A stretch of DNA of 64,000 nt, from IMG/VR virus record IMGVR_UViG_3300045988_125866; one strand, written 5' to 3'. The notes below the pieces were generated by a model, which did not search any database, had not been told where the DNA came from, and saw nothing but the letters and a program-made list of their open reading frames with translations. Source of the stretch: a virus. Shown here one piece after another: positions 2,721 through 34,652 of the stretch. The position numbers and the translations under genes were made by a program. The stretch's first letter is position 1. Every line of letters begins with the position of its first letter.

Positions 2721-3573
2721 ACACCCACTATCTTTGCCCACGGTGGACACAATAAAGCCACCGTGGGATATTATACACCAAATCCGGAGATTTGGCGCGG
2801 GCTGTCATGCCCTTATTTTTCCCACACTTTTTGGTAAACCTTGTCGTGGTGTGTGGGCTTAACTTTAGAGAGAGAATTTATTCTCCCTCAGGGGACTAAT
2901 TGCCAAAAATCCAAGACGAAAACGTTCTCCAGAAGTAGCGAGCGGGCTATATCACAGCGAGAGCGGCGGGCGAGAAACCCTGTCAGTCTAAAACAACGCT
3001 GAGACATGGCGGTCGGCACAGGGCGTTATCGCAACGACCCAAGCGAGCTAAACACTCTCCTCCCTTTGATGGGGTTCGGTCACGACAACCGACGGAGAGC
3101 AGGAGCGAGCGGAAGCAAGAACGAAGTCTCAGGGCGGCAGATGGCGGCGTAAACAAACAAAATCATAATTCATATTCTATCGTCTGGCACACGTGGACGA
3201 GTTCCTAAAGTGCTGCGCACATTCATTACAGGGCGCGGGTGGTACAAATCTGTAATCGTGAGTAGTTATCGTTTATCTCACGTGAGGTATATCCAAAAGG
3301 TCTACGATACGTAAGTAGTTGTACGTATAGCTATATCGCTACACAAGTAGCGGACGTGTGGGAATTATTCCCATGAAAACGTGCGGAGAACGCTGAGGGG
3401 TTATCCGCTGGTGTCTTTCGAGATGCCGACAAGTCCTCAGAGGGTGACGAAGCGACACAATACGGTGTCGTGGGTGACAAGCGTGCACAATGAAAGTGTA
3501 TCATCCTGGCAATGGCTGCGCATGGAGAGATCCGTGCGTGGCTCCTATTACGAACCATTTAAAAATTAGAATT
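2721..3573 (+). ncRNA. candidate structured non-coding region (about 850 nt, GC- and purine-rich core), function unknown
   Basis: Only short overlapping ORFs with implausible composition. Many helices: 2737-2767 (10 bp), 2821-2857 (7 bp), 3225-3256, 3257-3282, 3360-3372, 3453-3470. The purine-rich, GC-rich core 2930-3150 contrasts with the AT-rich coding DNA around it. Confidence 0.3.
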
Positions 3574-3759
3574 ATGAAAGAACAGATTTTGAAGAAGATT
3601 GGAAAGACGCTTGTGCGTATTAATGTAACAGATCAGAGTGCAGAGGATGCCTACGATGAACTCGTTAGCAGCAGTCCTCGCCTGTTTGGTATGCTTTCCA
3701 GTATCTACAGACTGAATGATGAAGAAGAAAGATTCGCTTGGTCTGCCGGAATTCAGTAG
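3574..3759 (+). CDS. hypothetical early protein (61 aa)
   Basis: In frame with track ORF 3490-3759. ATG directly preceded by an exact ATTAGAATT junction motif. Confidence 0.65.
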   Translation: MKEQILKKIGKTLVRINVTDQSAEDAYDELVSSSPRLFGMLSSIYRLNDEEERFAWSAGIQ

Positions 3760-3809
3760 CCTAATCTCCCTACGCTTGTAGGGAACAATAACCATAAAAT
3801 TTTAGAGTT

Positions 3810-3944
3810 ATGAGTACAATGAGAATAAAGTGCCTCTCCATGCGAGAGGTCGAGAGTGTCATTGCGGATGCTCAGGAGATTTTGAGTCATGTTGAATTCG
3901 GGTCGCTGAAGAATGGTGTGCTTACATTATTCTGTGTGGCTTGA
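3810..3944 (+). CDS. hypothetical small protein (44 aa), not in ORF track
   Basis: ATG preceded by AACCATAAAATTTTAGAGTT (junction-motif variant). MSTMRIKCLSMREVESVIADAQEILSHVEFGSLKNGVLTLFCVA. Stop followed by GCCTAAAA plus hairpin ccgtagc...gctacgg. Confidence 0.5.
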   Translation: MSTMRIKCLSMREVESVIADAQEILSHVEFGSLKNGVLTLFCVA

Positions 3945-3961
3945 GCCTAAAAATCCGTAGC

Positions 3962-4332
3962 CAGTACGATAATTGTCGTGCGTGTGCTACGGAACAATCA
4001 CTAACAAATTTTAGAATTATGACAGCAAGACAGATTATTTATTCAAGTACGATAATTCTGCTTGGATTTTTTCAGGCGCTTCCTGCGCTGTTGTGTTTGG
4101 CAAGTACGAATATTCCTGTAATTCTGCTTGGAATTATTTGGGGCGTTCTGCTTGGTAAGTTCTGGAGCAGTACGACAATTGGCAAGTGGTATTTCCGCGA
4201 GCTTTGGCGTGCTACGCTCCGCTTGGAGAATCTCATGTTCCCTGAGGTGTGAGAGAGTTGGCAAGTACGAAAATTCTGCTTGGAAACATTCGGCTAAATT
4301 CTGCTTGGAGAAATTCAGGCAGTACGATAATT
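3962..4332 (+). repeat. cluster of about 8 copies of the word GCAGTACGATAATT(CTGCTTGG); extra copies at 4576-4591 and 5793-5808
   Basis: Copies read directly at 3962-3974, 4045-4065, 4099-4131 (with insertion), 4146-4155 (half), 4167-4180, 4260-4283, 4296-4308 (half) and 4318-4332. Irregular spacing of 56-95 nt. Copies lie both inside and outside ORF 4019-4252. Confidence 0.8.
4019..4252 (+). CDS. possible small membrane protein (77 aa); coding status uncertain because it is largely built from the DNA repeat
   Basis: ATG preceded by exact TTTTAGAATT. Hydrophobic product MTARQIIYSSTIILLGFFQALPALLCLASTNIPVILLG.... However, the STIILLG-like peptide repeats are translations of the AGTACGATAATTCTGCTTGG DNA repeat, which continues past the stop. 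Confidence 0.4.
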   Translation: MTARQIIYSSTIILLGFFQALPALLCLASTNIPVILLGIIWGVLLGKFWSSTTIGKWYFRELWRATLRLENLMFPEV

Positions 4333-4349
4333 GACCAAGTTACAGAATT

Positions 4350-4544
4350 ATGAGAAAGACAGAATTAAAGAAAGTCAAGCGAGGAGAGTTCTTCCGCTTG
4401 GCGAATTCAGAGAGCGCTCCTGTATGGGTGCGTGACGGATACAACAGAAGTAGCCGCAAATACGATGGTTACAAATATGATGACGTGTGTCACTGGAGGG
4501 AGTTCAGCGGCACACGTATTGTTTACGTGGATTTCTGCTTTTGA
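4350..4544 (+). CDS. hypothetical early protein (64 aa)
   Basis: ORF track. ATG preceded by CCAAGTTACAGAATT junction variant. Confidence 0.65.
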   Translation: MRKTELKKVKRGEFFRLANSESAPVWVRDGYNRSSRKYDGYKYDDVCHWREFSGTRIVYVDFCF

Positions 4545-4615
4545 AATCCTACAGCCTAAATGCTGCCTGTTCCGTGGGCAGTACGATAATTATGAACCAT
4601 TAAAATATTAGAATT

Positions 4616-4870
4616 ATGAAAAAGAAATTTCCATCATTGTTTTTCTGTGCGATATCTATTATCTGCGCCTACTTTATTGTAGCCATGACTCCAATCTATG
4701 TATCTGACGTACGTAATTTGTACGGATATCTTACATTTATTGATATAGATTGGGAATTGACAGCATGGAATACCCTGTTATTCTCGTTTACAACATTTAT
4801 CATGTTGGCATGCGCTATGGATGCAGTAATATGCGCATGTCTCGCATACAAGAATTGGGACAATGATTAG
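4616..4870 (+). CDS. small membrane protein (84 aa, 2-3 TM)
   Basis: ORF track. Exact TTAGAATTATG start context. Hydrophobic segments. Stop followed by GAGCCAAA plus hairpin. Confidence 0.7.
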   Translation: MKKKFPSLFFCAISIICAYFIVAMTPIYVSDVRNLYGYLTFIDIDWELTAWNTLLFSFTTFIMLACAMDAVICACLAYKNWDND

Positions 4871-4929
4871 TGAGCCAAATCTGAGAGGAGTTTTCGCTCC
4901 TCTCTTCTATTAACCAAAAAATTAAGAAT

Positions 4930-5268
4930 ATGTACAAGACAATAACAAAGGAATTAAGCAAGTGTGAGTTAATTGATATCATGATGGGCATGGCCTGCGA
5001 GGAAGATATGTGTACACACACATCTATCCAGAGAGTTCTATGTCCTATACAGGCGTGCGATGAGTTCGGTGGCGATCCTGAGGATTCTCGTCTTCTGCTG
5101 CCGGGAACATACATGGCAGTATATCATGGCGAGGTGGAGGATGAACCGTTTCCTATGTTTGCAAAGAAATGCGCCCACATCATTACAGATGAGGACAAAT
5201 GTCAGATGCTCATGAACGGAGACGGCTGTATTCTGATTTTCCTGCTGAACAAATACGAGCAGCATTAG
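4930..5268 (+). CDS. hypothetical early protein (112 aa, Cys-rich)
   Basis: ORF track. TATTAACCAAAAAATTAAGAAT-ATG context. Stop embedded in TAGCCAAAA followed by a hairpin. Confidence 0.7.
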   Translation: MYKTITKELSKCELIDIMMGMACEEDMCTHTSIQRVLCPIQACDEFGGDPEDSRLLLPGTYMAVYHGEVEDEPFPMFAKKCAHIITDEDKCQMLMNGDGCILIFLLNKYEQH

Positions 5269-5328
5269 CCAAAATGTGCTCAGGCATTTCCCTGGGCATA
5301 CTATGTAAAACCAATTTAATTTAGAATT

Positions 5329-5505
5329 ATGCAAGACAGGAAATCACAGAAGAATTTTGAGCGTGCCCTTATGCACGAGATGGAAAAGATCAAGATTGCA
5401 GCACGTCAGTGGTACAGCAACAACGCGAAGGGCTACAGGGATTATCGTAGCCGTGAGTCTATCTCAAAGAGTTTCAACGAGATAGCCATTTTGTGTATGA
5501 GCTAA
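5329..5505 (+). CDS. hypothetical small basic protein (58 aa), not in ORF track
   Basis: Exact TTAGAATTATG at 5321-5331. MQDRKSQKNFERALMHEMEKIKIAARQWYSNNAKGYRDYRSRESISKSFNEIAILCMS. 59 codons checked by hand. Confidence 0.6.
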   Translation: MQDRKSQKNFERALMHEMEKIKIAARQWYSNNAKGYRDYRSRESISKSFNEIAILCMS

Positions 5506-5556
5506 AAATGTGCGTGGCGGTTGTCACGCATACAATTCACCAAAAAATGTAGAATT

Positions 5557-5784
5557 ATGAAACGGAAGAAAAAACTAACGGGCTACGTTCTTGTAGATCC
5601 GTTCGATGGTGCAATCTTATGTCAGTATCCAGTAGGACCGTGTTTTGACAGAGATTGCATTTCTGCGAAGATGGAGGCTATTCATGACGCAGAAGAAAAA
5701 AGGATAAAGGGTTGTTGTATGGAGGTTTACGGATGTATTAATAATACGTATTCTGACGGAACAAGAATTTATCCGCACGATTAG
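5557..5784 (+). CDS. hypothetical Cys-rich early protein (75 aa)
   Basis: In frame with track ORF 5521-5784. Start moved to the ATG after CACCAAAAAATGTAGAATT. Stop in TAGCCAGAA followed by a hairpin carrying GCAGTACGATAATT. Confidence 0.65.
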   Translation: MKRKKKLTGYVLVDPFDGAILCQYPVGPCFDRDCISAKMEAIHDAEEKRIKGCCMEVYGCINNTYSDGTRIYPHD

Positions 5785-5843
5785 CCAGAACTGGGCAGTA
5801 CGATAATTGTGCTGCCTGCTATTAACCAAAACATATTAGAATT

Positions 5844-5990
5844 ATGGAAACAGTAAGAGTAACCGACAGACACGGAATAGAGCGAGAGTGGGATATAGTC
5901 ACAGAGAGATGTGTAGGATGCTGCTTTCACGGATTGATGGATAGCAAGATTCATTGCTGCCCTCATAATATTGCGTGCGGTTACAAGTAG
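5844..5990 (+). CDS. hypothetical Cys-rich microprotein (48 aa), not in ORF track
   Basis: Exact TTAGAATTATG. METVRVTDRHGIEREWDIVTERCVGCCFHGLMDSKIHCCPHNIACGYK (7 Cys/His-rich, zinc-ribbon-like). Stop in TAGTCAAAA plus hairpin. Confidence 0.55.
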   Translation: METVRVTDRHGIEREWDIVTERCVGCCFHGLMDSKIHCCPHNIACGYK

Positions 5991-6050
5991 TCAAAACGGC
6001 GGGGCACGTCCTGTGTCCTGCTTCTATTATTAACCAAATACATTAGAATT

Positions 6051-6218
6051 ATGACACAAGCAGATGTTAATTTTCTACAGGCACTTGTAGAGTCTCACGA
6101 GCAAGTTATTGCAGCAGACTGCAAGAGACGTAAATTAAGCAGAGAAGTTTATAACAGGCGTGTATCTAAGAGCGAGAAGAGAGCGAATAAGATACTTCGT
6201 GAGATGATGTGTCGCTAA
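6051..6218 (+). CDS. hypothetical small basic protein (55 aa), not in ORF track
   Basis: Exact TTAGAATTATG at 6043-6053. MTQADVNFLQALVESHEQVIAADCKRRKLSREVYNRRVSKSEKRANKILREMMCR. Confidence 0.55.
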   Translation: MTQADVNFLQALVESHEQVIAADCKRRKLSREVYNRRVSKSEKRANKILREMMCR

Positions 6219-6270
6219 ACAGGGTAGAGCTATTGTTCTACCTACATAATAACCAATTAACGAAAGAATT

Positions 6271-6489
6271 ATGGAGAAAATGACACAGAAAGAGTTGAAG
6301 AGACTCGTTAAAGTAGGAGCTGCCAAGGATATAACAAACAGTTCAAGTCGCGCAGCCATACCTGAAGGATATAGTCAGGTAGGCTATTCTGCCGGCGTGT
6401 ACGGATGCAACGGAATGTTATTTCGTGGTGATAGCGGAAAGCTGTATGCTATTTGTGCAAGAACTACGGCTATCTACATTTTTGGCTAA
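6271..6489 (+). CDS. hypothetical early protein (72 aa)
   Basis: ORF track. AATAACCAATTAACGAAAGAATT-ATG context. Stop followed by hairpin 6495-6521. Confidence 0.65.
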   Translation: MEKMTQKELKRLVKVGAAKDITNSSSRAAIPEGYSQVGYSAGVYGCNGMLFRGDSGKLYAICARTTAIYIFG

Positions 6490-6549
6490 AATTACAGGCA
6501 AGTGTATGGTTCGCTTGCCTGTTTCTATTATCAACCAAAATATAGAAAT

Positions 6550-7011
6550 ATGAATATACAGAAAGTATGGGATGCGTTTATCAAGGAAAATGATAACACA
6601 TCATTCGTTGAGATGGCAAATGCTGTAGTAGAGCAACTTGGTGGTGTTGATGAGGACACAATACTGAACTCGCTCGACAGTTGCAGAAATGCAGATGACG
6701 GATACACCGGGTTTTGTTATTTTTCAGAGACCAGCAAGTTTTGGAACGAGAACAAGAGCGCCATCATTGAGAATATGCACGAGCTTGCCGATGATTTGGG
6801 CGAAGACCTGATTACTATGATTAAGGGATTCAACAATTTTAAGGACGACGAGGATATTACCTACGATGCTATCGGCAAGGCTCTGTATGCTCCTTTTGAT
6901 GAGAACGAGAGCAGATATATCTACGACACATTCGCCAAGTACGCGCTGGAAGAGGTTGCAAACAGATTCCAGGACTGGTGGTACGATCAGGACGAAAGCG
7001 ACTACGAGTAG
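6550..7011 (+). CDS. hypothetical acidic early protein (153 aa)
   Basis: In frame with track ORF 6502-7011. Start moved to the ATG after TCAACCAAAATATAGAAAT. Strongly acidic (many D/E). Stop in TAGCCAAATC plus hairpin 7021-7040. Confidence 0.7.
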   Translation: MNIQKVWDAFIKENDNTSFVEMANAVVEQLGGVDEDTILNSLDSCRNADDGYTGFCYFSETSKFWNENKSAIIENMHELADDLGEDLITMIKGFNNFKDDEDITYDAIGKALYAPFDENESRYIYDTFAKYALEEVANRFQDWWYDQDESDYE

Positions 7012-7069
7012 CCAAATCAATCCCCACATCATCGTGGGGAACAATTATGAACCAATAAACAGAAGAATT

Positions 7070-7603
7070 ATGGAAAAGAATATTGTAGAAGTTGTTATGA
7101 ACAACAAAGGTGAGGTAATTGAGAAAGTTGCCGATTATATTGGTGTGGTAAGTTTCGCCAATACTATCGAAAATCTTTATCGTGAATGTCTGGATAATTA
7201 CGACAACGCAGAGGATATTGAAGAATACCTTGCTGATTGCTGTGGTAAAAATATTCAGAAACTTGCATGGGAGTTTACACTTAAAGCAAATAGAGAGATG
7301 AAGAAATATCTCCATCTGCCTTCTCAGCGAATGCAAGGTAATTTTGCCGATTTACGCATGGACTATCCCAATCACAGAACAGGTACTTTCTGGGTATCTA
7401 AGTACGAAGGATCGGTTGCGGAGTATTTAAACCTGTATCCTGATATGGTTGCTCGTTTGGATGCCGCAGAGGATAGCGAGCAGGCTGACGAGGATAGAGC
7501 GTATCTTGAAGAGTGGTATTTCGAAGCTTTCGGCACGTTTGGGATTACATACAATTTCAGCAACGACCTTGCAGAGATTGTCTACAACCTTGAACGGGAA
7601 TAA
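7070..7603 (+). CDS. hypothetical acidic early protein (177 aa)
   Basis: In frame with track ORF 6866-7603. Start moved to the ATG after GAACCAATAAACAGAAGAATT. Confidence 0.7.
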   Translation: MEKNIVEVVMNNKGEVIEKVADYIGVVSFANTIENLYRECLDNYDNAEDIEEYLADCCGKNIQKLAWEFTLKANREMKKYLHLPSQRMQGNFADLRMDYPNHRTGTFWVSKYEGSVAEYLNLYPDMVARLDAAEDSEQADEDRAYLEEWYFEAFGTFGITYNFSNDLAEIVYNLERE

Positions 7604-7669
7604 TGTGTAACAGCCTAACAATGCGTGGTTAATTCCACGCATACATTACGAACCAATAAAATCATAATT

Positions 7670-8491
7670 ATGAGCTACGAATTTGAAAAGAAGGAAATCG
7701 GTGATTACAGAATCACGGTTTTCCAGGATGAGGATGCCGGATGCCCTTGTACCGACTGGGATTTGGCTGGAGTTTACTTCTGGGATTATCCAAACTACGG
7801 ATACAACAGAAGACTGTCTTCTTATTGCAGCAGCGAAATTGGCGCTGAGAATGCAGAGGATGCTTTAAAACGGCTCGTCTGTAAATATGTGTCACAAAAG
7901 AAGATTATCGACTACATCAATAGCGAAAATGTCGAAAACTTCCGTATGCGCTACGACAAGGCTGACCACATGTGGTATCTTGAAAATCTGTACGACGGAA
8001 AGTGGTACGAGCACGATCGTTTCTCTCCATACGATGTAAAGAACGAGCGCTGTACCGATGATCTTTGTGATATCCTCGAAGAGGGCGATTTTACGTATCT
8101 TCTGCAAGACTGCAAGGATATTGCGTTCTACGAGTGGTCTTCCAGAGGATATTGTCAGGGAGACTATGTAAGCGGATATGCCTACTGTGACAAAGAACGC
8201 TTCAAGGAGATGGTAGACACGAATACCAAAAACTGGAGAAAACGAGCCTTGGACTTATTCGAAGGAGAGGTCAAAGATATCGGTATGTGGATGTGGGGTG
8301 ATGTCAAGGGATTCGTCTTGGAGAAGAAAGTCCACTACAAGAAAGTCTTCACGGAAATAGGTCGTGAGCCGGAGGACGACTACGTCTGGGAGCAGATTGA
8401 TTCATGCTGGGGAGAGTACTACGAAGATGCTGATGACCTCATCGAAGATGTTATCAAGGAATACGGCTTACAGCCGAAAGATGCAGCCTAA
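7670..8491 (+). CDS. hypothetical early protein (273 aa)
   Basis: In frame with track ORF 7625-8491. Start moved to the ATG after GAACCAATAAAATCATAATT. Preceded by hairpin 7623-7640. Confidence 0.7.
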   Translation: MSYEFEKKEIGDYRITVFQDEDAGCPCTDWDLAGVYFWDYPNYGYNRRLSSYCSSEIGAENAEDALKRLVCKYVSQKKIIDYINSENVENFRMRYDKADHMWYLENLYDGKWYEHDRFSPYDVKNERCTDDLCDILEEGDFTYLLQDCKDIAFYEWSSRGYCQGDYVSGYAYCDKERFKEMVDTNTKNWRKRALDLFEGEVKDIGMWMWGDVKGFVLEKKVHYKKVFTEIGREPEDDYVWEQIDSCWGEYYEDADDLIEDVIKEYGLQPKDAA

Positions 8492-8541
8492 CCAAGGGGA
8501 GCTTGCACGCTCCTCTTCTATCAACCAAATTACAAAGAATT

Positions 8542-8868
8542 ATGAAAGCAAGACTTTATCATGACACAAGGAAGAAATCTCGTGATTGTGTGGATGCGTG
8601 GAGTATATATTTCCCGTACCCCAAACGCATGAGAGAGCAGAAACAGACGTATGGCACATTTCTCGGATGTACGCCTACAGAAGACGGAATGATACGTTGT
8701 ACGTGGGATTTTGATGAGTTTGGAATGCGTTCTTACCTCGGAAAGAGGGTAGATATATCGACTACACCAGTTGCCTTTCAGAAAATATTTTATCATCTTG
8801 AAAAGCTATGGAACGATGTTATTACTCTCCATACAGAAGAAGCGGAGGAAGCCTGGCTTAATGCCTAA
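8542..8868 (+). CDS. hypothetical early protein (108 aa)
   Basis: In frame with track ORF 8503-8868. Start moved to the ATG after TCAACCAAATTACAAAGAATT. Confidence 0.65.
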   Translation: MKARLYHDTRKKSRDCVDAWSIYFPYPKRMREQKQTYGTFLGCTPTEDGMIRCTWDFDEFGMRSYLGKRVDISTTPVAFQKIFYHLEKLWNDVITLHTEEAEEAWLNA

Positions 8869-8919
8869 AACGGAGGGAGCAATCCCTCTGACATTATTAA
8901 CCAATAAATTATTAAGAAT

Positions 8920-9255: not shown

Positions 9256-9257
9256 TC

Positions 9258-9485: not shown

Positions 9486-9536
9486 GCCAAACGGGGGAGA
9501 GTAATCTCCCTACTAATAACCAAAAATATTATAGAT

Positions 9537-9716: not shown

Positions 9717-9749
9717 GGACTGCGCACAATAACCAAAACAAGAAGAATT

Positions 9750-13154: not shown

Positions 13155-13209
13155 GCCTCATCCACAAGATTTAATTAACATTTTAATAACCATTAACAAA
13201 ATTAGAATT

Positions 13210-14277: not shown

Positions 14278-14520
14278 CAACACCTAAGGTTTGTCGCCTT
14301 TTTCCCGATGGCCTGGCATTACGGTTTACAAGAGCTTCTTGTATCGCCTTCCGCATCCGGTAGAATCAACCGGTACAGAAGGCGAGCATAAAGCTCTCCG
14401 GATCAAAACGCTAAAGCAAGACACCAAACCAGGAATCGAGAAAACTTTTTGCCGAAAAGGTCGGTTGTTCCTTAATCAGCAACCGACTGCAATTCATTAA
14501 CCAATTAAAATTTTAGAATT
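14278..14520 (+). other. ORF-free structured spacer (243 nt)
   Basis: Hairpins tacaag/cttgta (about 14326-14342), atccgg/ccggat (about 14354-14402) and gtcggttg/caaccgac (14460-14487). Ends in the junction motif. Confidence 0.3.
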
Positions 14521-14697
14521 ATGAGTAAGTATTTTGTAGGTATCAGCGAGACAACGAAGGGTTGGGCGGAAGTAGAGGCGGACAACGTAGAACAAGCCAA
14601 GGCTAAAGCTTATGAGGCATGGAGTAACGGAGAGGCTTTTATGGACGAGAAGAACTCTGAATGTTCCGTTGAGTGTACCTATCTGAAAAGCCTGTAA
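14521..14697 (+). CDS. small acidic protein, DpnD/PcfM-like (58 aa), not in ORF track
   Basis: Exact TTAGAATTATG. MSKYFVGISETTKGWAEVEADNVEQAKAKAYEAWSNGEAFMDEKNSECSVECTYLKSL, a paralogue of 9258-9485. Confidence 0.55.
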   Translation: MSKYFVGISETTKGWAEVEADNVEQAKAKAYEAWSNGEAFMDEKNSECSVECTYLKSL

Positions 14698-14758
14698 ACG
14701 GTTCTCTGTGCCCGACAAGCACAGAAACCACAATTATTAACCAAAAAACTATAAAGAT

Positions 14759-15160
14759 ATGAATACAGATAAAGATGGATATGATGTTATCAAAAGTCTG
14801 CGCCCTGCGCCTGTTGATCAGACGAACGTCCTGGAAGACAGAATTCTTGACCTGTTGTTCGATGGCAGCAGATACGTACAGGAAAACCACAAGGCCGTTG
14901 GTTTTATCTACAGCCTTCCTACTTTGACCTCTGTTTACGACAACTGCCTTACCGTCACTCTTATTCCAAACAACTGTCCAGAAGAGGAGGTTGATGCATG
15001 GGCTCTTCAGGTTGTCAACTCTATCAATGTCCAGTGTTTGGATGAGGTGAGGAAGTTTGAATACGTAAGCCTGTTCAATTTCAACTTCGTCGATGGACTC
15101 GTATGCACTTACATAGTTACACGAGGTGTCGTCGAGTTCCAGTTTCATTTCACAGACTAA
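14759..15160 (+). CDS. hypothetical protein (133 aa)
   Basis: ORF track. TATTAACCAAAAAACTATAAAGAT-ATG. Stop in TAAGCCAAAA plus hairpin. Confidence 0.65.
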   Translation: MNTDKDGYDVIKSLRPAPVDQTNVLEDRILDLLFDGSRYVQENHKAVGFIYSLPTLTSVYDNCLTVTLIPNNCPEEEVDAWALQVVNSINVQCLDEVRKFEYVSLFNFNFVDGLVCTYIVTRGVVEFQFHFTD

Positions 15161-15228
15161 GCCAAAACCGGGCTGTGAGTTATACAACTCCAGCCTTCCA
15201 TTGTCTAACCATTTAAATATTTTGAATT

Positions 15229-15663
15229 ATGACAACAGTAAGAAAAGCAACAAAAATCCTGAAAGCTTCCGATATCATGAAGAAGAAGGGCATCGTCCAG
15301 AAGCAGATGGACATGAGTAAGTTCAATGAGGTCGTGGAGGATTTCTTTATGACCCACGAACCAAAGGAAACAATTCTCCTCACTCCGAAAAGATTTATCG
15401 AGATGGACAACCCTCCAGAAGGTGACTTCATCGACTATCTCGACGTGAGCGTGTGGGAGAAGAAATGCGATGATCCAGACGATCCGTTTGACTTTATAGA
15501 CTATCAGTGCATGAAAAAGAACGGAACACTACGTCCGATGCTTATTGTCAACGAGCCTTTCATCGGAAATGCTGCTGGGTGGCTGAGAGATTTTTGTGGA
15601 TTCACTGTAAAGAGCAGAACACGAAAGAAAAAGAAAGAATACATCGTGTCTCTGCCGGTGTAA
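15229..15663 (+). CDS. hypothetical protein (144 aa)
   Basis: ORF track. CTAACCATTTAAATATTTTGAATT-ATG. Stop followed by AAGCCAAAC plus hairpin. Confidence 0.7.
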   Translation: MTTVRKATKILKASDIMKKKGIVQKQMDMSKFNEVVEDFFMTHEPKETILLTPKRFIEMDNPPEGDFIDYLDVSVWEKKCDDPDDPFDFIDYQCMKKNGTLRPMLIVNEPFIGNAAGWLRDFCGFTVKSRTRKKKKEYIVSLPV

Positions 15664-15729
15664 AAGCCAAACAAGGCGTGGAACATTATTGTTTCACGCT
15701 TCTATTATTAACCAATTAAAATAGAAATT

Positions 15730-15888
15730 ATGGAAGAAAAAATCGAAAAATTCAAGGAATTGATGGAAGCAAAGCATAACTGCCAGTTTTGCCTTGACAA
15801 CGCTACAGGAAGTGCGGATATGCACGGGTTAGTGTATTGGGCAGAGAGAGTCGAGAAATTGAGAGAGGAGGTGTCAGAGCTGTTGTAG
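15730..15888 (+). CDS. hypothetical small protein (52 aa), not in ORF track
   Basis: ATG after TATTAACCAATTAAAATAGAAATT. MEEKIEKFKELMEAKHNCQFCLDNATGSADMHGLVYWAERVEKLREEVSELL. Confidence 0.55.
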   Translation: MEEKIEKFKELMEAKHNCQFCLDNATGSADMHGLVYWAERVEKLREEVSELL

Positions 15889-15944
15889 TCAAACAAAACC
15901 GTTACGTAATGTAGCGGTTTCTACAAACCAAAATATTAAGAATT

Positions 15945-16466
15945 ATGGATAGAAAAGAGTTAAAGAAAGAGATTGTCGAGTTATGTTCAACTGTAAAGAT
16001 TGAGCTTGCATGCACCATTCGTGAGATCATGAGGGAGTACAACGTACAGAAGAAAGAGCTTGGCTGGCCTGTAGTTATCAACAATAGCAGTTATGTAGAT
16101 GTCGTAGAGGTAGGCAGTAGTGATACTGACATTCCGGTTTTCACCATAAGTGTCGGTGCTGGCTGTTACAAAGAGTATCACAAGGTAAGAGCATTTGATG
16201 ATTGTGTGTCGATTGAGCTCCTCGCTGATATTACGACCGGGCTGAATAACGAATTGGGCGGCTACGTCGGCACTTATGTAGCAAAGTACAGATTCCTCTA
16301 TGAAGATGGGGCTACTGCCGACATGGATGAGCCTTATATATTTCTTGCAGAATCAGAAAAAGACGCAGAAGATAAGGCATGCGACTATGCGGAGGTATGG
16401 AACAACTGGAATGATGATACGATAGAACTCGTGTCAGTCGAGAAACGGGTTGATTCTAAAGGTTAA
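15945..16466 (+). CDS. hypothetical acidic protein (173 aa)
   Basis: ORF track. CAAACCAAAATATTAAGAATT-ATG context. Confidence 0.7.
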   Translation: MDRKELKKEIVELCSTVKIELACTIREIMREYNVQKKELGWPVVINNSSYVDVVEVGSSDTDIPVFTISVGAGCYKEYHKVRAFDDCVSIELLADITTGLNNELGGYVGTYVAKYRFLYEDGATADMDEPYIFLAESEKDAEDKACDYAEVWNNWNDDTIELVSVEKRVDSKG

Positions 16467-16489
16467 ATTAGCGTTAAAAACGGCAAAGG

Positions 16490-16522
16490 TTTGGTTTATA
16501 CTGAAAAATATCAATAACTTTG
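16490..16522 (+). promoter_or_regulatory. Bacteroidota sigma-AB-type promoter for the recombinase gene
   Basis: TTTG (16490-16493), 21-nt spacer, TAACTTTG (16515-16522). Matches the TTTG/TAnnTTTG consensus and lies 31 nt upstream of ATG 16553. Confidence 0.6.
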
Positions 16523-16552
16523 CTGTCAATCTAACCAAAATATTTTAGAATT

Positions 16553-17563
16553 ATGAAAGAGATTCATTTAAAAACAAGAGACTGGGAGAGGCTTCTCACC
16601 TACGAACAGCAGCAGAAGTACAAGTATGCGATAAAACAGGGGTGGTTCTCAGACTATCACGGTTCTTCGTGGCGGCATGATACCTTTTATGGCGCATATA
16701 TCTGGAAACACCCTAAGTATATCAATGTTGTACGCACATTTTCCGATCTTGTTGGGCACAAGCCACTGTGGTCCGACGTAACAGACGACAATCTTCGTGA
16801 CTTGACCGAAAAAATACAGGAACTATACGCTCCTAACTCTTCAAGAACGATATGCGCTACTATAAAAGCTGTCATAAGGGAGAACGACGAGAAGGGCATA
16901 CGGAGCAGCAAGTTCGACTCTATACTTAGGGTTAAACGGGTTCCTGTTCAGGCTGTATATCTTGATGATAACGAGATACAGAGCCTTATCGACTATATCC
17001 CTCACGGATCTGTTGAGCGGTACGTTAAGCGAATGTTCATGCTTGAATGTTTGTGCGGTGCCCGTCTGAGCGATTGTCACAACATCACGCCCGAGAATAT
17101 TGATGATACAGGGAAATATATCGTATATGTTGCGCAGAAAACAAAAGCGGAGGTGAGAGTTCCTCTTCACAAGAAGCTACGGCCATTCCTTGTATGTGGG
17201 ACAGCAGACGAGCCTGTTGGCGGAGTTGTTGACGTTTACTTCAACAAGGTTCTGCGAGAAATATGTAGCAACTGCGGAATCGATACTCGTGTAAAGGTAT
17301 TCAAATGCGGTAAGTACGAGTCTGGACCTAAATACAAGTTCGTGTCTTCGCATACGGGCAGGCGCTCGTTTGCTACTAATTTATCAAAGAAGGGCGTACC
17401 GGTCGAGCAGATTGCAATCATGATGGGGCACGCCAACGGAGGCAAGCCAAATATCGAAATGACACAGCGTTACATTGTGGGAAAGACCAATATTGACACA
17501 AGAACCTTGCGCGTTTTCGGTATTTACGACGATGATTACAATAGCGTCGGCGATGAATGCTAA
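16553..17563 (+). CDS. tyrosine recombinase (phage-integrase family, 336 aa), second recombinase of the element
   Basis: Catalytic signature: GARLSD (Arg I), SSHTGRRSFATNL (His-x-x-Arg), MMGH, TQRYI (Tyr). Exact TTAGAATTATG start plus its own promoter. Confidence 0.8.
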   Translation: MKEIHLKTRDWERLLTYEQQQKYKYAIKQGWFSDYHGSSWRHDTFYGAYIWKHPKYINVVRTFSDLVGHKPLWSDVTDDNLRDLTEKIQELYAPNSSRTICATIKAVIRENDEKGIRSSKFDSILRVKRVPVQAVYLDDNEIQSLIDYIPHGSVERYVKRMFMLECLCGARLSDCHNITPENIDDTGKYIVYVAQKTKAEVRVPLHKKLRPFLVCGTADEPVGGVVDVYFNKVLREICSNCGIDTRVKVFKCGKYESGPKYKFVSSHTGRRSFATNLSKKGVPVEQIAIMMGHANGGKPNIEMTQRYIVGKTNIDTRTLRVFGIYDDDYNSVGDEC

Positions 17564-17613
17564 ACAGAGAGGAGGGTATAACCTCCCTCGCTATTAACTA
17601 AAACTTTACAAAT

Positions 17614-17937
17614 ATGGATTACGGAGAAGAATACAAAGAGAAGTTGGCCAACCTTGGCAGGTGGCAGCTTTTGAGAGAAGCAAATAAAATGAGAAGAAAA
17701 CTTTTAGCGTTTTCCGAACTTGGGGATGTTGATAAAGCATTTAAAAACCTCAACGAGAATGAATGGTTGAAGAACGTTATTGATGCAAAGAGAAGACAGA
17801 TCGGCATTGCGAGAAGTTTAATAATGGACGAGCTCGAAAAGAGGGGTATTGATACAGGAGGTAAGTATCTAACAATGCTTACGGCCCTGAAAATCCTTCT
17901 TGGCATCGAGCAGTTCAGAGATAATAACCACAAATAA
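17614..17937 (+). CDS. hypothetical protein (107 aa)
   Basis: ORF track. CTATTAACTAAAACTTTACAAAT-ATG. Confidence 0.65.
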   Translation: MDYGEEYKEKLANLGRWQLLREANKMRRKLLAFSELGDVDKAFKNLNENEWLKNVIDAKRRQIGIARSLIMDELEKRGIDTGGKYLTMLTALKILLGIEQFRDNNHK

Positions 17938-17946
17938 TTTAGAATT

Positions 17947-18381
17947 ATGTTAGAAGGAGTAGAAAAGGAAACGCTCGAAAAGTGGGCCAAGGAGTGCAAT
18001 GAGAAGTATCATAAACTTTTCATACAAACTCTTCAAAAGCCTATGTTGGGCGAGATTGGAACGAACGGACAGATGATCAAAGAGCTGAAAGACCTAAATA
18101 TGAGCTACTTTGAGGAAATGAGCGACTACACAGATGGGTTTATCGATGACATTGATGGCGGTTTCATCGAACTCTTCGAGAAAGCAGAGGAGAATGGAAT
18201 AAACGTCATACAGGAAGCGAAAGAGTGTCTTTTTACCCTTAAAGACGTAGACGACATGCTTAATGCTAAACATTGGGTCAACGAAGATGGCCATATATGC
18301 GACGAAGAAGGCAATAGACTTTCCGAAGACAGAGAGCATCGAGTATTCGAGGTTATCAAGGGAGGCAAGTGTGACGATTAG
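17947..18381 (+). CDS. hypothetical acidic protein (144 aa)
   Basis: ORF track. Exact TTAGAATTATG. Stop in TAGCTAAAACC plus hairpin. Confidence 0.7.
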   Translation: MLEGVEKETLEKWAKECNEKYHKLFIQTLQKPMLGEIGTNGQMIKELKDLNMSYFEEMSDYTDGFIDDIDGGFIELFEKAEENGINVIQEAKECLFTLKDVDDMLNAKHWVNEDGHICDEEGNRLSEDREHRVFEVIKGGKCDD

Positions 18382-18455
18382 CTAAAACCGGGGAGTAGAA
18401 ATACTCCCTGCAATTATTAACCAAGCCCTACGCAGCACGGTCAAGCGAAAAAGAT

Positions 18456-18722
18456 ATGAAGCAATTCAAGGTATATTGGAATAATACAGTAGAGATTAAT
18501 ATGGTAGCAGATTTCGATACCATAGACGAAGCTAAACAGTATTGTGATGAGAATACGAAAGGGTATGATGAAGTCGGCGACAATGATAATTGCTGGGAAG
18601 GTCGCAGTAATAACTTCCACTACGAAGTTTACGATGGCGACAAAGAGATACTGGATGAAGATGGCGATGTTGTAGATTTCAACGAACCAGTTTACGAGAC
18701 ACCTCAGTATTATTGCGATTAA
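18456..18722 (+). CDS. hypothetical acidic protein (88 aa)
   Basis: ORF track. Preceded by the 26-nt leader repeat AGCCCTACGCAGCACGGTCAAGCGAA (18424-18449). Confidence 0.65.
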   Translation: MKQFKVYWNNTVEINMVADFDTIDEAKQYCDENTKGYDEVGDNDNCWEGRSNNFHYEVYDGDKEILDEDGDVVDFNEPVYETPQYYCD

Positions 18723-18764
18723 TAAACTTTCTAAGCCCTACGCATCACGGTCAAGCGAAGAAAT

Positions 18765-19082
18765 ATGATTACTAAAGAATTGGCAAAACAACTCATTGAA
18801 CAGGCTGAGTATAATTGCTCAGGCGAAAAAGTGGAGTACAATATAGACGACATACTTCCGCTCAGTGAAGACGGTGCTTATCTCGTTTTCGCATCATCCG
18901 AGTCTTGCAAGACATCTTTTGTCTGCTACGAAGATGGAACGGCTTATTTTCTCAGCGACTGGCAGGGTTGTTACCCTGTAAGCGAAAATGCAATAGCCGA
19001 GTTCAATAACTGGGTCACGATAGATTGGAAGGAATCGCCCGTCATCTTTAACGGACTTCCAAGAGTTCTATTTGATTTATAA
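18765..19082 (+). CDS. hypothetical protein (105 aa)
   Basis: ORF track. Preceded by leader repeat copy 18734-18759. Confidence 0.65.
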   Translation: MITKELAKQLIEQAEYNCSGEKVEYNIDDILPLSEDGAYLVFASSESCKTSFVCYEDGTAYFLSDWQGCYPVSENAIAEFNNWVTIDWKESPVIFNGLPRVLFDL

Positions 19083-19120
19083 ACTAATTTAGCCCTCGAC
19101 ATCACGGTTAAGTCGTTTCG

Positions 19121-19636
19121 ATGAAGAAGATATTATCTATAGCAATAATCACTATTGCTGGAATTTCACTTGTTTCCTGCAATTCTATGGAGCACAAGGC
19201 GAAGAGTCAGCTTCGAAGTACATTAGAAGAACTCGCTAAGAACCCAGAGTCTTTTAGTATATCAAAAGAGAAGGTAATATTCTCAAATGACTCCATGTGT
19301 ACTATTTCGTTCATAGGAAGAGGGCAGAATGGCTTTGGCGGCTATACATCTTCAAGAATGGAGTACACACTTCTAAAAATAGAGAACGAAAAGGGAAAAA
19401 CTCAATACGACGAGGCTCTGCTTGACATGGAGGATAAAGACCAGAGAAAAGGCTCTATCAAGGAGGCTTTGGAGAATGTTGACGGAGGATACCTGTACGG
19501 ATCGGAGAAGGATGTCTATAATGAATGCCTTAGAGATTGTGGTGGCGACAAGGAGAAGGCAAGAGCGGATTATCTGTTCTCAACGGCACTCTGTAACGTA
19601 ATTAGCAACGGAAGAATAGTCGATTCAGACGACTAA
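19121..19636 (+). CDS. lipoprotein (171 aa)
   Basis: Signal peptide with lipobox MKKILSIAIITIAGISLVSC. Preceded by a degenerate leader repeat, 19091-19115. Confidence 0.7.
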   Translation: MKKILSIAIITIAGISLVSCNSMEHKAKSQLRSTLEELAKNPESFSISKEKVIFSNDSMCTISFIGRGQNGFGGYTSSRMEYTLLKIENEKGKTQYDEALLDMEDKDQRKGSIKEALENVDGGYLYGSEKDVYNECLRDCGGDKEKARADYLFSTALCNVISNGRIVDSDD

Positions 19637-19664
19637 TATAAAATATTTATAAACTTTACAAATT

Positions 19665-20177
19665 ATGAAGAAGTTATTATTTGTTTTAGCGTTAATAGCG
19701 TTTGCTTCTTGTAACAGTTCTCAATCACAAATGAAGAAATGGGTCGAAGACAAGATTGAAAAGCAAGCAACATCAAAAGGACAAAAATATGAAGCGTCAG
19801 ACTTCGGAACGTTTTACGCAATCGGTTTCAAAGAAAATGCGGATTCCCTTGCTAAAGCAAAAGGTATGACACCAATGGGTGATGATGATGTGTATTGGAA
19901 AATGATAAACCGAGAAGGGTGGATTGCGGGTAATCTACAAGAGAATCCATTCTGTGATTTGTCAAAAGTAAAGGAAACAGCCGTTGAGATTGATAACTTT
20001 ATCAAAGAACAACATCTTACTGCTAATTGTTATTTCGTAATTCATAAATACAAAATAACGGATAGCGACCTTGGTGTTAGCTCTAATATGACTGCTGGTT
20101 TGGTCATTGGCGCACCTGGAGAAAAATACGAAGGAGTCCTACATTGTTGTGAGAAGTCAATCCAGCCCAACGAGTAA
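19665..20177 (+). CDS. lipoprotein (170 aa)
   Basis: Signal peptide with lipobox MKKLLFVLALIAFASC. Followed by a terminator-like hairpin plus T-run at about 20188-20222. Confidence 0.7.
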   Translation: MKKLLFVLALIAFASCNSSQSQMKKWVEDKIEKQATSKGQKYEASDFGTFYAIGFKENADSLAKAKGMTPMGDDDVYWKMINREGWIAGNLQENPFCDLSKVKETAVEIDNFIKEQHLTANCYFVIHKYKITDSDLGVSSNMTAGLVIGAPGEKYEGVLHCCEKSIQPNE

Positions 20178-34641: not shown

Positions 34642-34652
34642 ATTTTAGAATT

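Follow-up and report, generated by a model that had tools for sequence, protein, structure and literature searches.

According to the passage of PMC13000457 that cites PMC6847099, known determinants of translation starts in the Shine-Dalgarno-less Bacteroidia are adenines at positions -3, -6, -12, and -13. In the viral DNA analysed here (IMG/VR record IMGVR_UViG_3300045988_125866; the whole stretch of 64,000 nucleotides is referred to as the window), two short boxes that recur between the genes of an array put A at these same positions, matching the determinants given in that passage. From the sequence, the junctions are best read as linkers that combine an RNA hairpin with a fixed ribosome start site and that a gut (Segatella/Prevotella copri) phage family would reuse between about 30 small genes of unknown function.

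The array genes (Table 1) are separated mostly by spacers of 50-74 nt, and 30 of the 34 share the same junction grammar, namely the stop codon/AGCCWAA (box 0), a hairpin, (C)TATTAACCAAA (box A), 4-8 nt, TTAGAATT (box B), and the ATG. Such a stereotyped, reused junction had been described in an earlier note on this DNA, and the hairpins (6495-6521, 7021-7040, 7623-7640, and 9495-9510) and stop contexts (5266, 7009, 9483, 15158, and 15661, with 18379 reading TAGCTAAA) quoted there were found as described. The sequence TTAGAATTATG occurs exactly 13 times, on the + strand only, versus 0.04 expected from shuffles, and the ATGs are those already listed in the note (3574, 4019, 4616, 5329, 5844, 6051, 10078, 12696, 13210, 14521, 16553, 17947, and 34653). 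Allowing up to two mismatches and requiring a terminal ATG gives 30 copies on the + strand (25 within 3566-17949) versus 11 on the - strand. The estimate of about 17 more starts with 1-2 differences was slightly high: box B stands before 12 additional real starts of genes with one or two mismatches, and before four with three. Box B directly abuts the ATG in every case and is absent from the last four array genes (18456-19665); box A (AACCAA) ends 9-16 nt upstream of the ATG at 30 of the 34 starts (19 exact and 11 with one mismatch). Folding of 14 spacers gave a single hairpin in each, after which the box A-box B-AUG tail stays unpaired (z -1.6 to -5.7). At 17947 and 34653 the hairpin is missing but both boxes are kept, with box A inside the upstream ORF. 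Apart from the RT and the recombinase, none of the 12 array ORFs scanned had an above-cut-off match in Pfam.

Table 1. Coordinates of the array, its junctions, and associated elements in the window (all on the + strand).
Feature	Position	Stop/box 0	Hairpin	Box A	Box B	Remarks
Host-type -7 box	2729..2736					TATCTTTG; ~840 nt upstream of gene 1
Structured leader RNA domain	3163..3576					~415 nt; compensatory base-pair changes between 2-3 lineages
Invariant 18-mer at leader head	3163..3180					TCATAATTCATATTCTAT; reverse complement of box B+ATG; predicted pairing with 3566-3576
Gene array	3574..20177					34 co-oriented genes, 44-421 aa; includes RT (10078-11343) and tyrosine recombinase (16553-17563)
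Junction before gene 1	3508..3576		3508-3545	3553-3558 (AACCAT)	3566-3573	ATG 3574; also 3' end of structured leader
Junction	3757..3812	TAG; 3759-3764 GCCTAA	3767-3784	3790-3795	3802-3809 (TTAGAGTT)	
Junction	3942..4021	3945-3950	3954-3993	4003-4008 (A-like, AACAAA)	4011-4018	Hairpin contains CCAGTACGATAATT copy
Long junction	4250..4352		~4290-4327	4333-4338 (A-like)	4342-4349 (ACAGAATT)	97 nt; two GCAGTACGATAATT-like copies
Junction	4542..4618	AGCCTAA ~4553-4559	within 4546-4587	4595-4600 (AACCAT)	4608-4615	
Junction	4868..4932	4874-4879	4883-4904	4912-4917	4922-4929 (TTAAGAAT)	
Junction	5266..5331	TAGCCAAAA; 5268-5273	5275-5300	5309-5314	5321-5328	
Junction	5503..5559		5509-5532	5538-5543 (A-like, CACCAA)	5549-5556 (GTAGAATT)	
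Junction	5782..5846	TAGCCAGAA	5793-5817	5824-5829	5836-5843	Loop contains GCAGTACGATAATT
Junction	5988..6053		5998-6022	6032-6037	6043-6050	
Junction	6216..6273		6222-6243	6251-6256	6263-6270 (AAAGAATT)	
Junction	6487..6552		6494-6522	6533-6538	6542-6549 (ATAGAAAT)	
Junction	7009..7072	TAGCCAAAT; 7011-7016	7021-7040	7050-7055	7062-7069 (GAAGAATT)	
Junction	7601..7672	7613-7618 GCCTAA	7621-7642	7651-7656	7662-7669 (TCATAATT)	
Junction	8486..8544	Stop within box 0 (GCC-TAA, 8486-8491)	8494-8517	8523-8528	8534-8541 (AAAGAATT)	
Junction	8863..8922	Stop within box 0 (8863-8868)	8871-8890	8899-8904	8912-8919 (TTAAGAAT)	
Junction	9483..9539	TAAGCCAAAC; 9486-9491	9494-9511	9518-9523	9529-9536 (TTATAGAT)	
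Short junction	9707..9752		9707-9725	9731-9736	9742-9749 (GAAGAATT)	Hairpin across stop codon
Junction before RT gene	10029..10080	Stop within box 0 (10029-10034)	10037-10052	10059-10064	10070-10077	
Boxes ending non-coding stretch	12678..12698			12678-12683	12688-12695	Stretch of 1352 nt; without strong hairpin
Junction	13142..13212		13142-13163	13188-13193 (AACCAT)	13202-13209	Hairpin across stop codon
End of 243-nt spacer	14449..14523		14449-14492	14499-14504	14513-14520	
Junction	14695..14761		14700-14729	14739-14744	14751-14758 (ATAAAGAT)	Degenerate box B
Junction	15158..15231	TAAGCCAAAA; 15161-15166	~15171-15196	15207-15212 (AACCAT)	15221-15228 (TTTGAATT)	
Junction	15661..15732	TAAAAGCCAAAC; 15666-15671	15674-15701	15710-15715	15722-15729 (B-like)	
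Junction	15886..15947		~15896-15920	15926-15931	15937-15944 (TAAGAATT)	
Junction before recombinase gene	16490..16555			16533-16538	16545-16552	Host-type promoter (TTTG 16490-16493, TAACTTTG 16515-16522) replaces hairpin
Junction	17559..17616	17559-17564 (box 0-like, GCTAAA)	17567-17589	17596-17601 (A-like, AACTAA)	17606-17613 (TTACAAAT)	
Minimal junction	17926..17949			17926-17931 (A-like)	17939-17946 (exact)	9-nt gap; box A-like in upstream gene's 3' end; without hairpin
Variant junction	18379..18458	TAGCTAAAA	~18390-18409	18419-18424		26-nt element AGCCCTACGCAGCACGGTCAAGCGAA (18424-18449) replaces box B
Canonical intrinsic terminator	20187..20213					Hairpin and TTTTTTATT; just past last array gene
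Remote copy outside array	34632..34655			34632-34637	34645-34652 (exact)	ATG 34653; box A in upstream reading frame; without hairpin

The same grammar was found in 822 distinct junctions from related viral contigs and S. copri prophages, in most of which box A ends 12-15 nt upstream of the ATG. The earlier note had named a comparable frequency at the starts of ordinary host genes as evidence against a special role; this was not observed, and in DNA from the host side and from other Bacteroidales the motif is rarer by a factor of 50-500. Counts of box B with at most one mismatch plus an ATG are 16 in the 16.6 kb of the array, one in the 43.8 kb of the rest, and none in 19.8 kb of flanking S. 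copri/Prevotella host DNA; 1.07 Mb from other Bacteroidales contains 20, none of them exact. When start contexts were scored with a PWM, the array genes had a median near 11; the highest score was 8.1 among the window's other genes and 8.7 among host-flank genes. No such junctions occur in a Bacteroides phage with a shared RT module.

One of three functions proposed in the earlier note, linkers for cassette exchange, predicted a pattern that is seen: related phages differ by whole ORFs swapped at the junctions. Among 907 HSP ends, 67% fall in spacers, which make up 16% of the array (p ~3e-24). Relatives of at least 92% identity gave 33 distinct breakpoints, of which 15 lie at box B/ATG and 11 at the stop/box 0 (together 26 of 33, in windows covering 9.6% of positions), and only one lies inside an ORF although ORFs occupy 74.5% of positions. 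Whole genes are replaced with ORF precision in the related locus L088, and L047 carries an extra cassette inserted at junction 15158..15231 between 16-nt direct repeats (ACAGACTAAGCCRAAA) that include box 0. The junction at 5782..5846 is ~90% conserved across many contigs despite different flanking genes. Each genome contains these short boxes about 30 times, and a large family of S. copri phages shares them; they would therefore be sites of ORF gain, loss, and replacement, most likely by short-homology recombination, although 7-12 nt is short for homologous recombination. Some of the breakpoints at ORF edges could also be explained by selection against gene disruption and by BLAST alignments extending through conserved motifs. 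The phage codes for a YqaJ-type exonuclease and SSB, and a candidate annealase (30865-31710) has no family name and a poor structure model. The tyrosine recombinase does lie within the array, as the note had pointed out; nothing connects it to the exchanges, and it is not an integron integrase.

The hairpins carry an RNA-strand signature. Folding at -8 kcal/mol or below was found for 93% of junctions (mean -14.1 versus -7.2 for shuffles), with 353 distinct hairpin sequences, a median stem of 9 bp, and a loop of 4 nt. On the sense strand, internal G.U pairs outnumber A.C mismatches by 289 to 7, versus 40 to 140 on the antisense strand, and the sense fold is the more stable (p ~1e-58). Loops of orthologous hairpins change 3.4 times faster than stems, where 46 events are wobble-preserving, 12 compensatory, and 26 disruptive. 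Since G.U is tolerated and A.C is not, and since compensatory changes occur, the hairpins appear to act in the sense RNA. A conserved structure of free sequence after each ORF, preceded by AGCCWAA that often supplies the stop codon, would mark the 3' side of the cistron, probably serving to insulate, to stabilise, or as a landmark for processing and not as a terminator. A pure 3' stabiliser would be odd given that the stop codon lies 0-10 nt from the hairpin foot, where a terminating ribosome would melt it.

Across the 822 junctions, the start consensus has A at -3, -4, -6, and -9 to -15. Boxes A and B would together provide a fixed Shine-Dalgarno-less ribosome start site, ~22 nt long and unstructured, that abuts the AUG and gives the same start signal to any ORF behind it. 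Predicted accessibility at these starts exceeds that of the window's other genes only slightly (0.61 vs 0.56, p = 0.02). The junction in front of the recombinase gene has a host-type promoter whose distance upstream of box A is 7-10 nt, both here and in at least 17 related loci; in this conserved case the boxes therefore lie in the 5' UTR. The -7 box at 2729..2736 is a candidate promoter of the leader and the array. The leader domain has no match in Rfam, and an invariant antisense copy of box B stands at its head, upstream of the array. The known preferences of the ribosome account for the adenines but not for T-8, T-7, G-5, T-2, T-1, or the AACC of box A, which are near-invariant here and which host genes manage without; for this reason, a phage-specific reader of the boxes, protein or RNA, may exist. 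Hairpins combined with a shared translational element had also been suggested in the note, and the RNA-level part of that proposal stands, given the tolerance of G.U over A.C, the compensatory changes, the position of the boxes past a promoter, and the match to Bacteroidia determinants; a RegA-like repressor acting on the element is a possibility.

The remaining proposal, phage-specific promoter/terminator units, is not supported, as ordinary junctions have no host-type -33/-7 promoter (with one host-type -7 box in all array spacers), the phage genes scanned include no RNA polymerase or sigma factor, and the junction hairpins have no U-tract and no U-rich tails, in which they differ from the canonical terminator past the array.

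Taken together, the three proposals are partly supported. We consider it rather probable that the junctions serve as standardised linkers between the cistrons of a largely polycistronic mRNA, with possible roles in translation, insulation, or the stability of the RNA, and that they are short-homology exchange points as well. As such, the linkers would be akin, as a variant, to the PeSLs of T4 and to the SAS/ESAS of mycobacteriophages.

The window covers most of a temperate, siphovirus-like Bacteroidota phage, and its recognisable genes outside the gene array are collected in the table below. The reverse transcriptase (RT) near the tail fibre is read as a DGR-type enzyme from that position; it scored 214 bits against the phage RT family phrog_1423, compared with 74 bits for the RT encoded within the array. 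A near-identity search of the array against deposited phage genomes gave 0 matches, that is, no closely related deposited phage. Relatives are integrated in Segatella copri genomes, and in S. copri HDD04 an integrase homologue (59% identical) has array genes on one side and unrelated DNA, presumably of the host, on the other; the prophage of this strain occupies roughly 912-948 kb of NZ_CP152484.1. Repeats of TTGTTTGCA, which are probably arm-type sites, adjoin the integrase start within 25289-25600, and the prophage/host boundary of S. copri HDD04 maps there. Two loci labelled as a Bacilli bacterium (L153) and as Firmicutes bacterium CAG:103 (L164) each contain 6-8 junctions in arrays that belong to this family of Segatella phages, and their Firmicutes labels are probably binning errors. 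Rfam searches at gathering thresholds returned two tRNAs and nothing else, a permissive scan of 2600-12800 returned nothing credible, and the array proteins scanned against Pfam matched no family.

Phage genes recognised outside the gene array
Feature	Coordinates	Strand	Basis	Remark
Primase	1-1017	-	gene scan	
Integrase	24081-25244	-	gene scan	
CI-like HTH protein	25533-26054	-	gene scan	
Antirepressor	26551-27357		gene scan	
YqaJ exonuclease	31707-32399		gene scan	
SSB-like protein	32400-32849		gene scan	
Reverse transcriptase, read as DGR-type	52004-53212	-		close to the 2109-aa tail fibre
Tail fibre, 2109 aa	55849-62178	-		collagen-like and carbohydrate-binding segments

The array consists of 34 + strand genes delimited in 3574-20177, with spacers mostly 50-74 nt in length. 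A typical junction comprises a stop codon embedded in AGCCWAA (box 0), a hairpin, box A with its AACCAA core, 4-8 nt, and an 8-mer (box B) followed by the ATG; the consensus for this Bacteroidota phage is TTAGAATT. An exact shared motif had been read by eye at thirteen starts in the earlier note, and all thirteen were recovered where it had placed them, as TTAGAATTATG occurs exactly 13 times, on the + strand only, against 0.04 in shuffles. With up to two mismatches there are 30 + strand matches, 25 of which lie in the array. Box A ends 9-16 nt ahead of the ATG at 30 of the 34 array starts, a hairpin with the conserved block is present at 30 of the 34 junctions, and all 14 of the spacers folded singly gave one hairpin followed by an unpaired tail of box A, box B and AUG. 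Box 0 is counted here as a fourth element. It takes the form GCC[AT]AA, lies 0-4 nt 5' of the hairpin in 323 of 682 distinct junctions (1.7% in control windows), and provides the stop codon in two alternative registers, TAG-CCAAA or GCC-TAA.

Two further repeats were observed within the array. The sequence GCAGTACGATAATT has seven + strand copies (three exact) in 3961-5808, located in hairpins, in spacers and inside the gene 4019-4252. A 26-nt element, AGCCCTACGCAKCACGGTCAAGCGAA, replaces box B ahead of the genes at 18456, 18765 and 19121 (18424-18449, 18734-18759 and ~19092-19117, respectively); the copy before 19121 is degenerate, and the element is ~90% conserved in other contigs.

The junction grammar is a trait of the phage family and not of the host. 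Searching viral contigs for the two-box pattern identified at least 119 stretches, mostly on contigs of 45-90 kb and many of them carrying arrays, and 822 distinct junctions were collected. In 185,579 reference genomes, the matches listed were single copies except for prophage-like S. copri loci with two each. Counting box B with at most one mismatch followed by ATG gave 16 copies in the array (16.6 kb), 1 in the rest of the window (43.8 kb), 0 in the host flank (19.8 kb) and 20, none of them exact, in 1.07 Mb of other Bacteroidales DNA. Start-context scores have a median of ~11 in the array, against maxima of 8.1 in the other window genes and 8.7 in host-flank genes. Bacteroides phage BS-TP1 (L318, PQ571274) shares the RT module of the array, and its gene starts are ordinary, without stereotyped junctions. 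By the host and Bacteroidales counts, the start-context scores and the BS-TP1 starts, the motif is rarer at host gene starts than in the array; a similar frequency at host starts, which the earlier note had named as speaking against its interpretation, was not found. A full-text literature search for the motif strings gave no relevant paper on the motif in this context.

The shared RT module occupies 10078-14277 and retains its gene order at 5443-9996 of BS-TP1, with a gap of the same size. It comprises a group-II-intron-like RT that scores under the cut-off of its family, a non-coding stretch of 1352 nt found at full length and ~70% identity in more than 30 contigs, and then genes of 152 and 355 aa. 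A 140-codon ORF (11782-12204) in the 1.35-kb gap was rejected as a gene, as its protein is not conserved in the 70%-identical relatives. A long non-coding RNA may be the partner of the RT in this module.

Stable hairpins were predicted in 93% of junctions picked solely by box A, ATG and a downstream ORF, with a mean of -14.1 kcal/mol compared with -7.2 kcal/mol in shuffles. The hairpins comprise 353 distinct sequences with a median stem of 9 bp and a loop of 4 nt. MAFFT alignment of the junction hairpins, including equal-length loop-centred inputs, found no shared register and a covariance model was not obtained; since sequence-unrelated hairpins cannot be held in register by MAFFT, the hairpin statistics come from direct folding. 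Folded as the sense strand, the stems contain 289 internal G.U pairs and 7 A.C mismatches, against 40 and 140 for the antisense fold, and with no energy filter the sense strand was the more stable in 586 of 822 junctions (p ~1e-58). Between orthologous junctions, loops change at 3.4 times the rate of stems, and the stems showed 46 wobble-preserving, 12 compensatory and 26 disruptive changes. The hairpin tails (TCTATT, ACAAT and ACATTATT) have no U-tract, such that of the two parts of a canonical intrinsic terminator, a G+C-rich hairpin and a U-tract directly after it, the junctions have the hairpin and lack the U-rich tail. The strand signature, the stem conservation and these tails argue that the hairpins are selected RNA structures and not canonical terminators. 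The loops of orthologous junctions are at times exact reverse complements (e.g., TCTGTGCAGTCTATCTGCACAGA and TCTGTGCAGATAGACTGCACAGA), which points to inversion of the loop via the stem arms.

Box B abuts the ATG in every case, with zero spacing, and the consensus has A at positions -3, -4, -6 and -9 to -15. Work on Flavobacterium johnsoniae has shown that initiation in Bacteroidia is favoured by A at -3, -6, -12 and -13 and by low structure, which are Kozak-like start determinants (Baez et al., 2019, PMC6847099, via Arpin et al., 2026, PMC13000457), and the ribosomes of Bacteroidia are described as ignoring Shine-Dalgarno (SD) sequences. The junctions have the same A residues and an unstructured start, although the start region is predicted to be barely more accessible than that of other genes (0.61 vs 0.56). 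The generic signal is a bias in composition, whereas here a specific 8-mer and a 7- to 11-mer are repeated near-verbatim and have no copies at host genes. Judged by their sequence and placement, boxes A and B behave as a 5' UTR and start site and would serve initiation. Some positions without a known ribosomal role are near-invariant in the junctions and absent from host starts, and this near-invariance beyond known ribosome reading leaves room for a dedicated reader.

A candidate for such a reader lies in the leader, a structured RNA domain (3163-3576) ahead of the first gene. The 18-mer at its head, TCATAATTCATATTCTAT (3163-3180), is the reverse complement of box B and ATG. It does not vary among the leader types of the family, including those in which the sequences on both sides of it are unrelated. 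Sense-strand copies of CATAATTC in 1.28 Mb of array-oriented loci number 90, and 68 of these are the 18-mer, which leaves 22 where 31 are expected. Between the 18-mer and the start site lie 310-420 nt of structured RNA (fold z = -3.4 for 2740-3573), and the leader has 23-28 compensatory pairs between two or three lineages and no match in Rfam. Pairing of the 18-mer with the start region of the first gene was predicted in 20 of 21 leader variants, from inputs cut exactly at both partners, which favours end-to-end pairing. On these predictions the leader would, at the least, mask the start site of the first cistron. Reading the 18-mer as the start of a divergent gene was rejected, as no conserved minus-strand ORF begins there. 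Upstream of the leader, a ~125-nt block (2792-2916) is 87-93% identical in many contigs compared with ~68-70% for the neighbouring sequence and contains a promoter-like TTTG ... TAACTTTA; a host-type -7 box, TATCTTTG, occurs at 2729-2736.

The leader and the near-invariant positions speak for a shared translational operator, in which one trans-acting factor reads box B, with or without box A, on ~30 cistrons and turns the whole array on or off together. The factor could be either a phage RNA-binding protein or the antisense 18-mer of the leader, and such control could coexist with the linker function proposed below. T4 RegA offers a precedent, acting through a shared start-region element on some tens of early cistrons. 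Both RegA sites and box B would allow co-ordinate control of tens of cistrons, but RegA sites are loosely conserved and the conservation of box B is far stricter; moreover, we know of no repressor for box B, unlike for RegA operators. The genes scanned yielded no candidate for an RNA-binding protein, the cis partner of the 18-mer (the start site of the first gene) can alone explain its conservation, and concerted evolution by repeated recombination also keeps repeats uniform without a specific reader. We regard an array-wide operator as on balance unlikely.

The earlier note had asked whether related phages differ by whole genes exchanged at the junctions, and such exchange was found in breakpoints, in gene replacements and in an inserted cassette. 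Among 907 internal ends of BLAST matches (HSPs) between the array and related contigs, 67% fall in spacers, which make up 16% of the array (p ~3e-24). Comparison with relatives at least 92% identical gives 33 distinct breakpoints. Of these, 15 fall at box B/ATG, 11 at the stop codon/box 0, 6 elsewhere in spacers and 1 in an ORF, where the shares expected by chance are 5.1%, 4.5%, 15.9% and 74.5%, respectively. In the related locus L088, an unrelated ORF stands in place of gene 1 and a single unrelated ORF in place of genes 5-6, and in both replacements identity ends just past the ATG and restarts at the stop codon. Another related locus, L047, has an extra paralogous cassette between 16-nt direct repeats, ACAGACTAAGCCRAAA, that take in box 0. 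Some junctions are ~90% conserved between otherwise unrelated genes (e.g., 5782-5846). Across all pairs, the hairpin stays with the upstream ORF in 80% and with the downstream ORF in 41%, which indicates crossovers on either side of the hairpin. A finer split of the breakpoints by tail-segment similarity was dropped as it is confounded by ordinary divergence.

Such boundaries could also arise if the junctions were expression signals only, with illegitimate recombination occurring anywhere, selection retaining the products with intact genes, and the boxes having no role in exchange. Phage genomes usually have their mosaic boundaries at gene borders, boxes of 7-12 nt are short, and BLAST ends are pulled towards conserved motifs. 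However, 26 of the 32 breakpoints outside ORFs lie in the two ORF-proximal boxes, which account for ~38% of spacer positions, and neither hairpin loops nor other neutral sites are favoured. The 16-nt direct repeat at either end of the L047 insertion and the matches confined to junctions between unrelated genes also run against this explanation, which we consider unlikely.

The possibility that each small gene is its own transcription unit, with boxes A and B as a promoter and the hairpin as a terminator or attenuator, is the arrangement established for the promoter early stem-loops (PeSLs) of T4-type phages. The promoter would be read by the host RNA polymerase, phage-modified or with an unrecognised phage factor. 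The combination of stem-loop, conserved block and ORFans is that of PeSLs with measured promoter and terminator activity (PMC2839356), a lenient terminator scan flags several junction hairpins (30 found vs 13.8 expected), and a 16.6-kb operon with ~30 hairpins and very few recognisable promoters would be unusual. On the other hand, host-type promoters (TTTG ... TAnnTTTG) are present at regulatory places of the phage (21775, 25302, 26074 and 16490) and in no ordinary junction. In array spacers, TTTG N17-23 TAnnTTTG occurs only once (16490-22), ahead of the recombinase gene, and a scan for the single -7 box agrees. In that junction box A follows the -7 box at a distance of 7-10 nt, an arrangement kept in at least 17 related loci, and boxes A and B must thus both be transcribed there. 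The zero spacing between box B and the ATG leaves no room for a transcription start downstream, and the scan of phage genes turned up neither an RNA polymerase nor a sigma factor among those covered. In addition, the terminators right after the array (20187-20213 and 20303-20325) have T-runs, unlike the junction hairpins. Promoter/terminator units are an improbable account of the junctions. A sigma-70 consensus scan (48 found vs 39 expected) was discarded as uninformative for this host.

At two starts, 17947 and the remote 34653, the boxes are kept without a hairpin and box A lies within the upstream reading frame. Just past the array terminator, the short hairpin and T-run at 20303-20325 come after a host-type -7 box at 20262 (TATCTTTG), and 20262-20330 could be a small RNA gene of ~60 nt.

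Integrons provide another form of gene exchange between hairpins. Their arrays consist of one-way, mostly promoterless ORFs, each followed by an attC hairpin that is conserved in structure and variable in sequence, with a tyrosine recombinase nearby; attC sites have inverted core sites (R''/R'), and the crossover occurs inside the site. The array shares the one-way promoterless ORFs, the hairpin after each and the tyrosine recombinase, whose gene lies inside this and many related arrays and has its own conserved host-type promoter. With AGCCWAA and AACCAAA flanking the hairpin and with sharply localised breakpoints, the recombinase could be imagined to recognise the hairpin and flanking RCCAAA boxes and to insert or excise ORF cassettes. 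Yet the integron integrase model TIGR02249, with a cut-off of 265 bits, gives the recombinase 22.8 bits, and the array is hence not an integron with an IntI-type integrase. Furthermore, the flanking boxes are direct repeats and not inverted core sites, the hairpins are short, perfect and devoid of attC features, and their excess of G.U over A.C points to RNA. Exchange points are found at three different boxes, at the ATG and the stop codon, and not at one crossover point inside a hairpin site, and the L047 repeat reaches into coding sequence, as homology predicts rather than a fixed site. A site-specific platform of this kind is highly improbable.

Two copies of AAACACACGATT, a probable operator, lie at 26019-26060 in the interval that separates the CI-like gene from the rightward genes. 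Least probable is that box B is a DNA operator at which the prophage repressor silences the array in lysogens from ~30 intergenic places, in the manner of the stoperators spread through Cluster A mycobacteriophage prophages. In its favour, this temperate phage encodes an integrase and a CI-like repressor and has integrated relatives, and the sites are asymmetric, intergenic and in one orientation. However, the switch-region repeats are unrelated to box B, and a role in RNA agrees better with the constant absence of a gap before the ATG and with the RNA-strand signature of the adjacent hairpin.

The observations to be explained are the anatomy and specificity of the junctions, the covariation of their hairpins and its strand signature, one conserved case in which the boxes lie in the 5' UTR, and the breakpoint positions. 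We propose that the junctions are standardised intercistronic linkers in a mostly polycistronic mRNA. Each linker would place an RNA hairpin module on the 3' side of one cistron, where it may insulate cistrons, protect 3' ends after processing or cause pausing, and a fixed SD-less start module (boxes A and B) ahead of the next cistron, where it would drive initiation. The repeated boxes would double as short-homology exchange points, and the phage exonuclease and a candidate annealase would make the joints. The candidate annealase, encoded at 30865-31710, has neither a family name nor a sequence match to solved structures, and its single-sequence AlphaFold model (pLDDT 38.6) is unusable.

A bolder and rather improbable extension of the linker model is that the array is a phage 'plug-and-play' ORF platform, with fixed crossover boxes and one riboregulator for the whole set as two coupled layers. 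In the first layer, promoterless ORFs would be swapped precisely between phages by means of box B/ATG on the left and the stop codon/box 0 on the right, an analogue of integron cassettes working through expression signals. In the second, the leader 18-mer would pair with any of the ~30 identical start sites, beyond the first cistron, which would explain the near-invariance of box B.

The junctions offer a natural, highly repeated and portable start module for bacteria without Shine-Dalgarno pairing. Hundreds of natural variants make the sequence rules of Bacteroidota initiation directly testable and provide ready-made parts for the engineering of Segatella and Bacteroides. The ORFs of the array are cleanly bounded units and thus a convenient library for anti-defence or host-takeover screens. 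Linkers that combine expression signals with gene shuffling had been described in T4-like phages and, to some extent, in Cluster K mycobacteriophages. That a temperate phage family unrelated to these, whose host is a dominant bacterium of the human gut, has such linkers built of different parts points to a general way of carrying accessory genes that change fast.

Of these known systems, the PeSLs (Arbiol et al., 2010, PMC2839356; Comeau et al., 2014, PMC4122927) are likewise composites of an intergenic stem-loop and a conserved block, with many copies in a plastic region rich in small genes without known function. In both systems the motifs delimit the indels and replacements that distinguish relatives, as the breakpoints demonstrate here, and recombination between short repeated regulatory sequences is the proposed driver in both. 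The PeSL block, however, is a host sigma-70 promoter and its stem-loop a measured terminator (PMC2839356), whereas the block described here has no match to the host promoter consensus, abuts the ATG and is part of the 5' UTR in the case that has a promoter; a U-tract is missing from the hairpins as well. The junctions fail the defining promoter feature of PeSLs. The phages also differ, as PeSLs belong to T4-like myoviruses and the present phage is temperate and siphovirus-like, with a host without Shine-Dalgarno sites.

The SAS/ESAS elements (start-associated sequences) of Cluster K mycobacteriophages (Pope et al., 2011, PMC3203893) are also short asymmetric repeats near the starts of some non-structural genes, in one orientation, often with an inverted repeat ahead, and practically absent from the host genome; there are 11-19 SAS copies per genome compared with ~30 junctions here. 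A role in translation initiation has been proposed and is unproven in both, and the function of SAS/ESAS was still untested in 2025 (PMC12699233). The SAS consensus, GGGATAGGAGCCC, holds an SD core and lies within a few bases upstream of the start (3-7 bp), whereas the motif described here has no SD and box B abuts the ATG. ESAS inverted repeats are a conserved 17-bp sequence, in contrast to the distinct hairpins of the array, which have no shared sequence. Boxes 0 and A are additional here, and ORF-precise exchange has not been described at SAS sites. The junctions fail the sequence features of SAS/ESAS, and we file them as a variant of the PeSL and SAS/ESAS kind of linker that is built from different parts.
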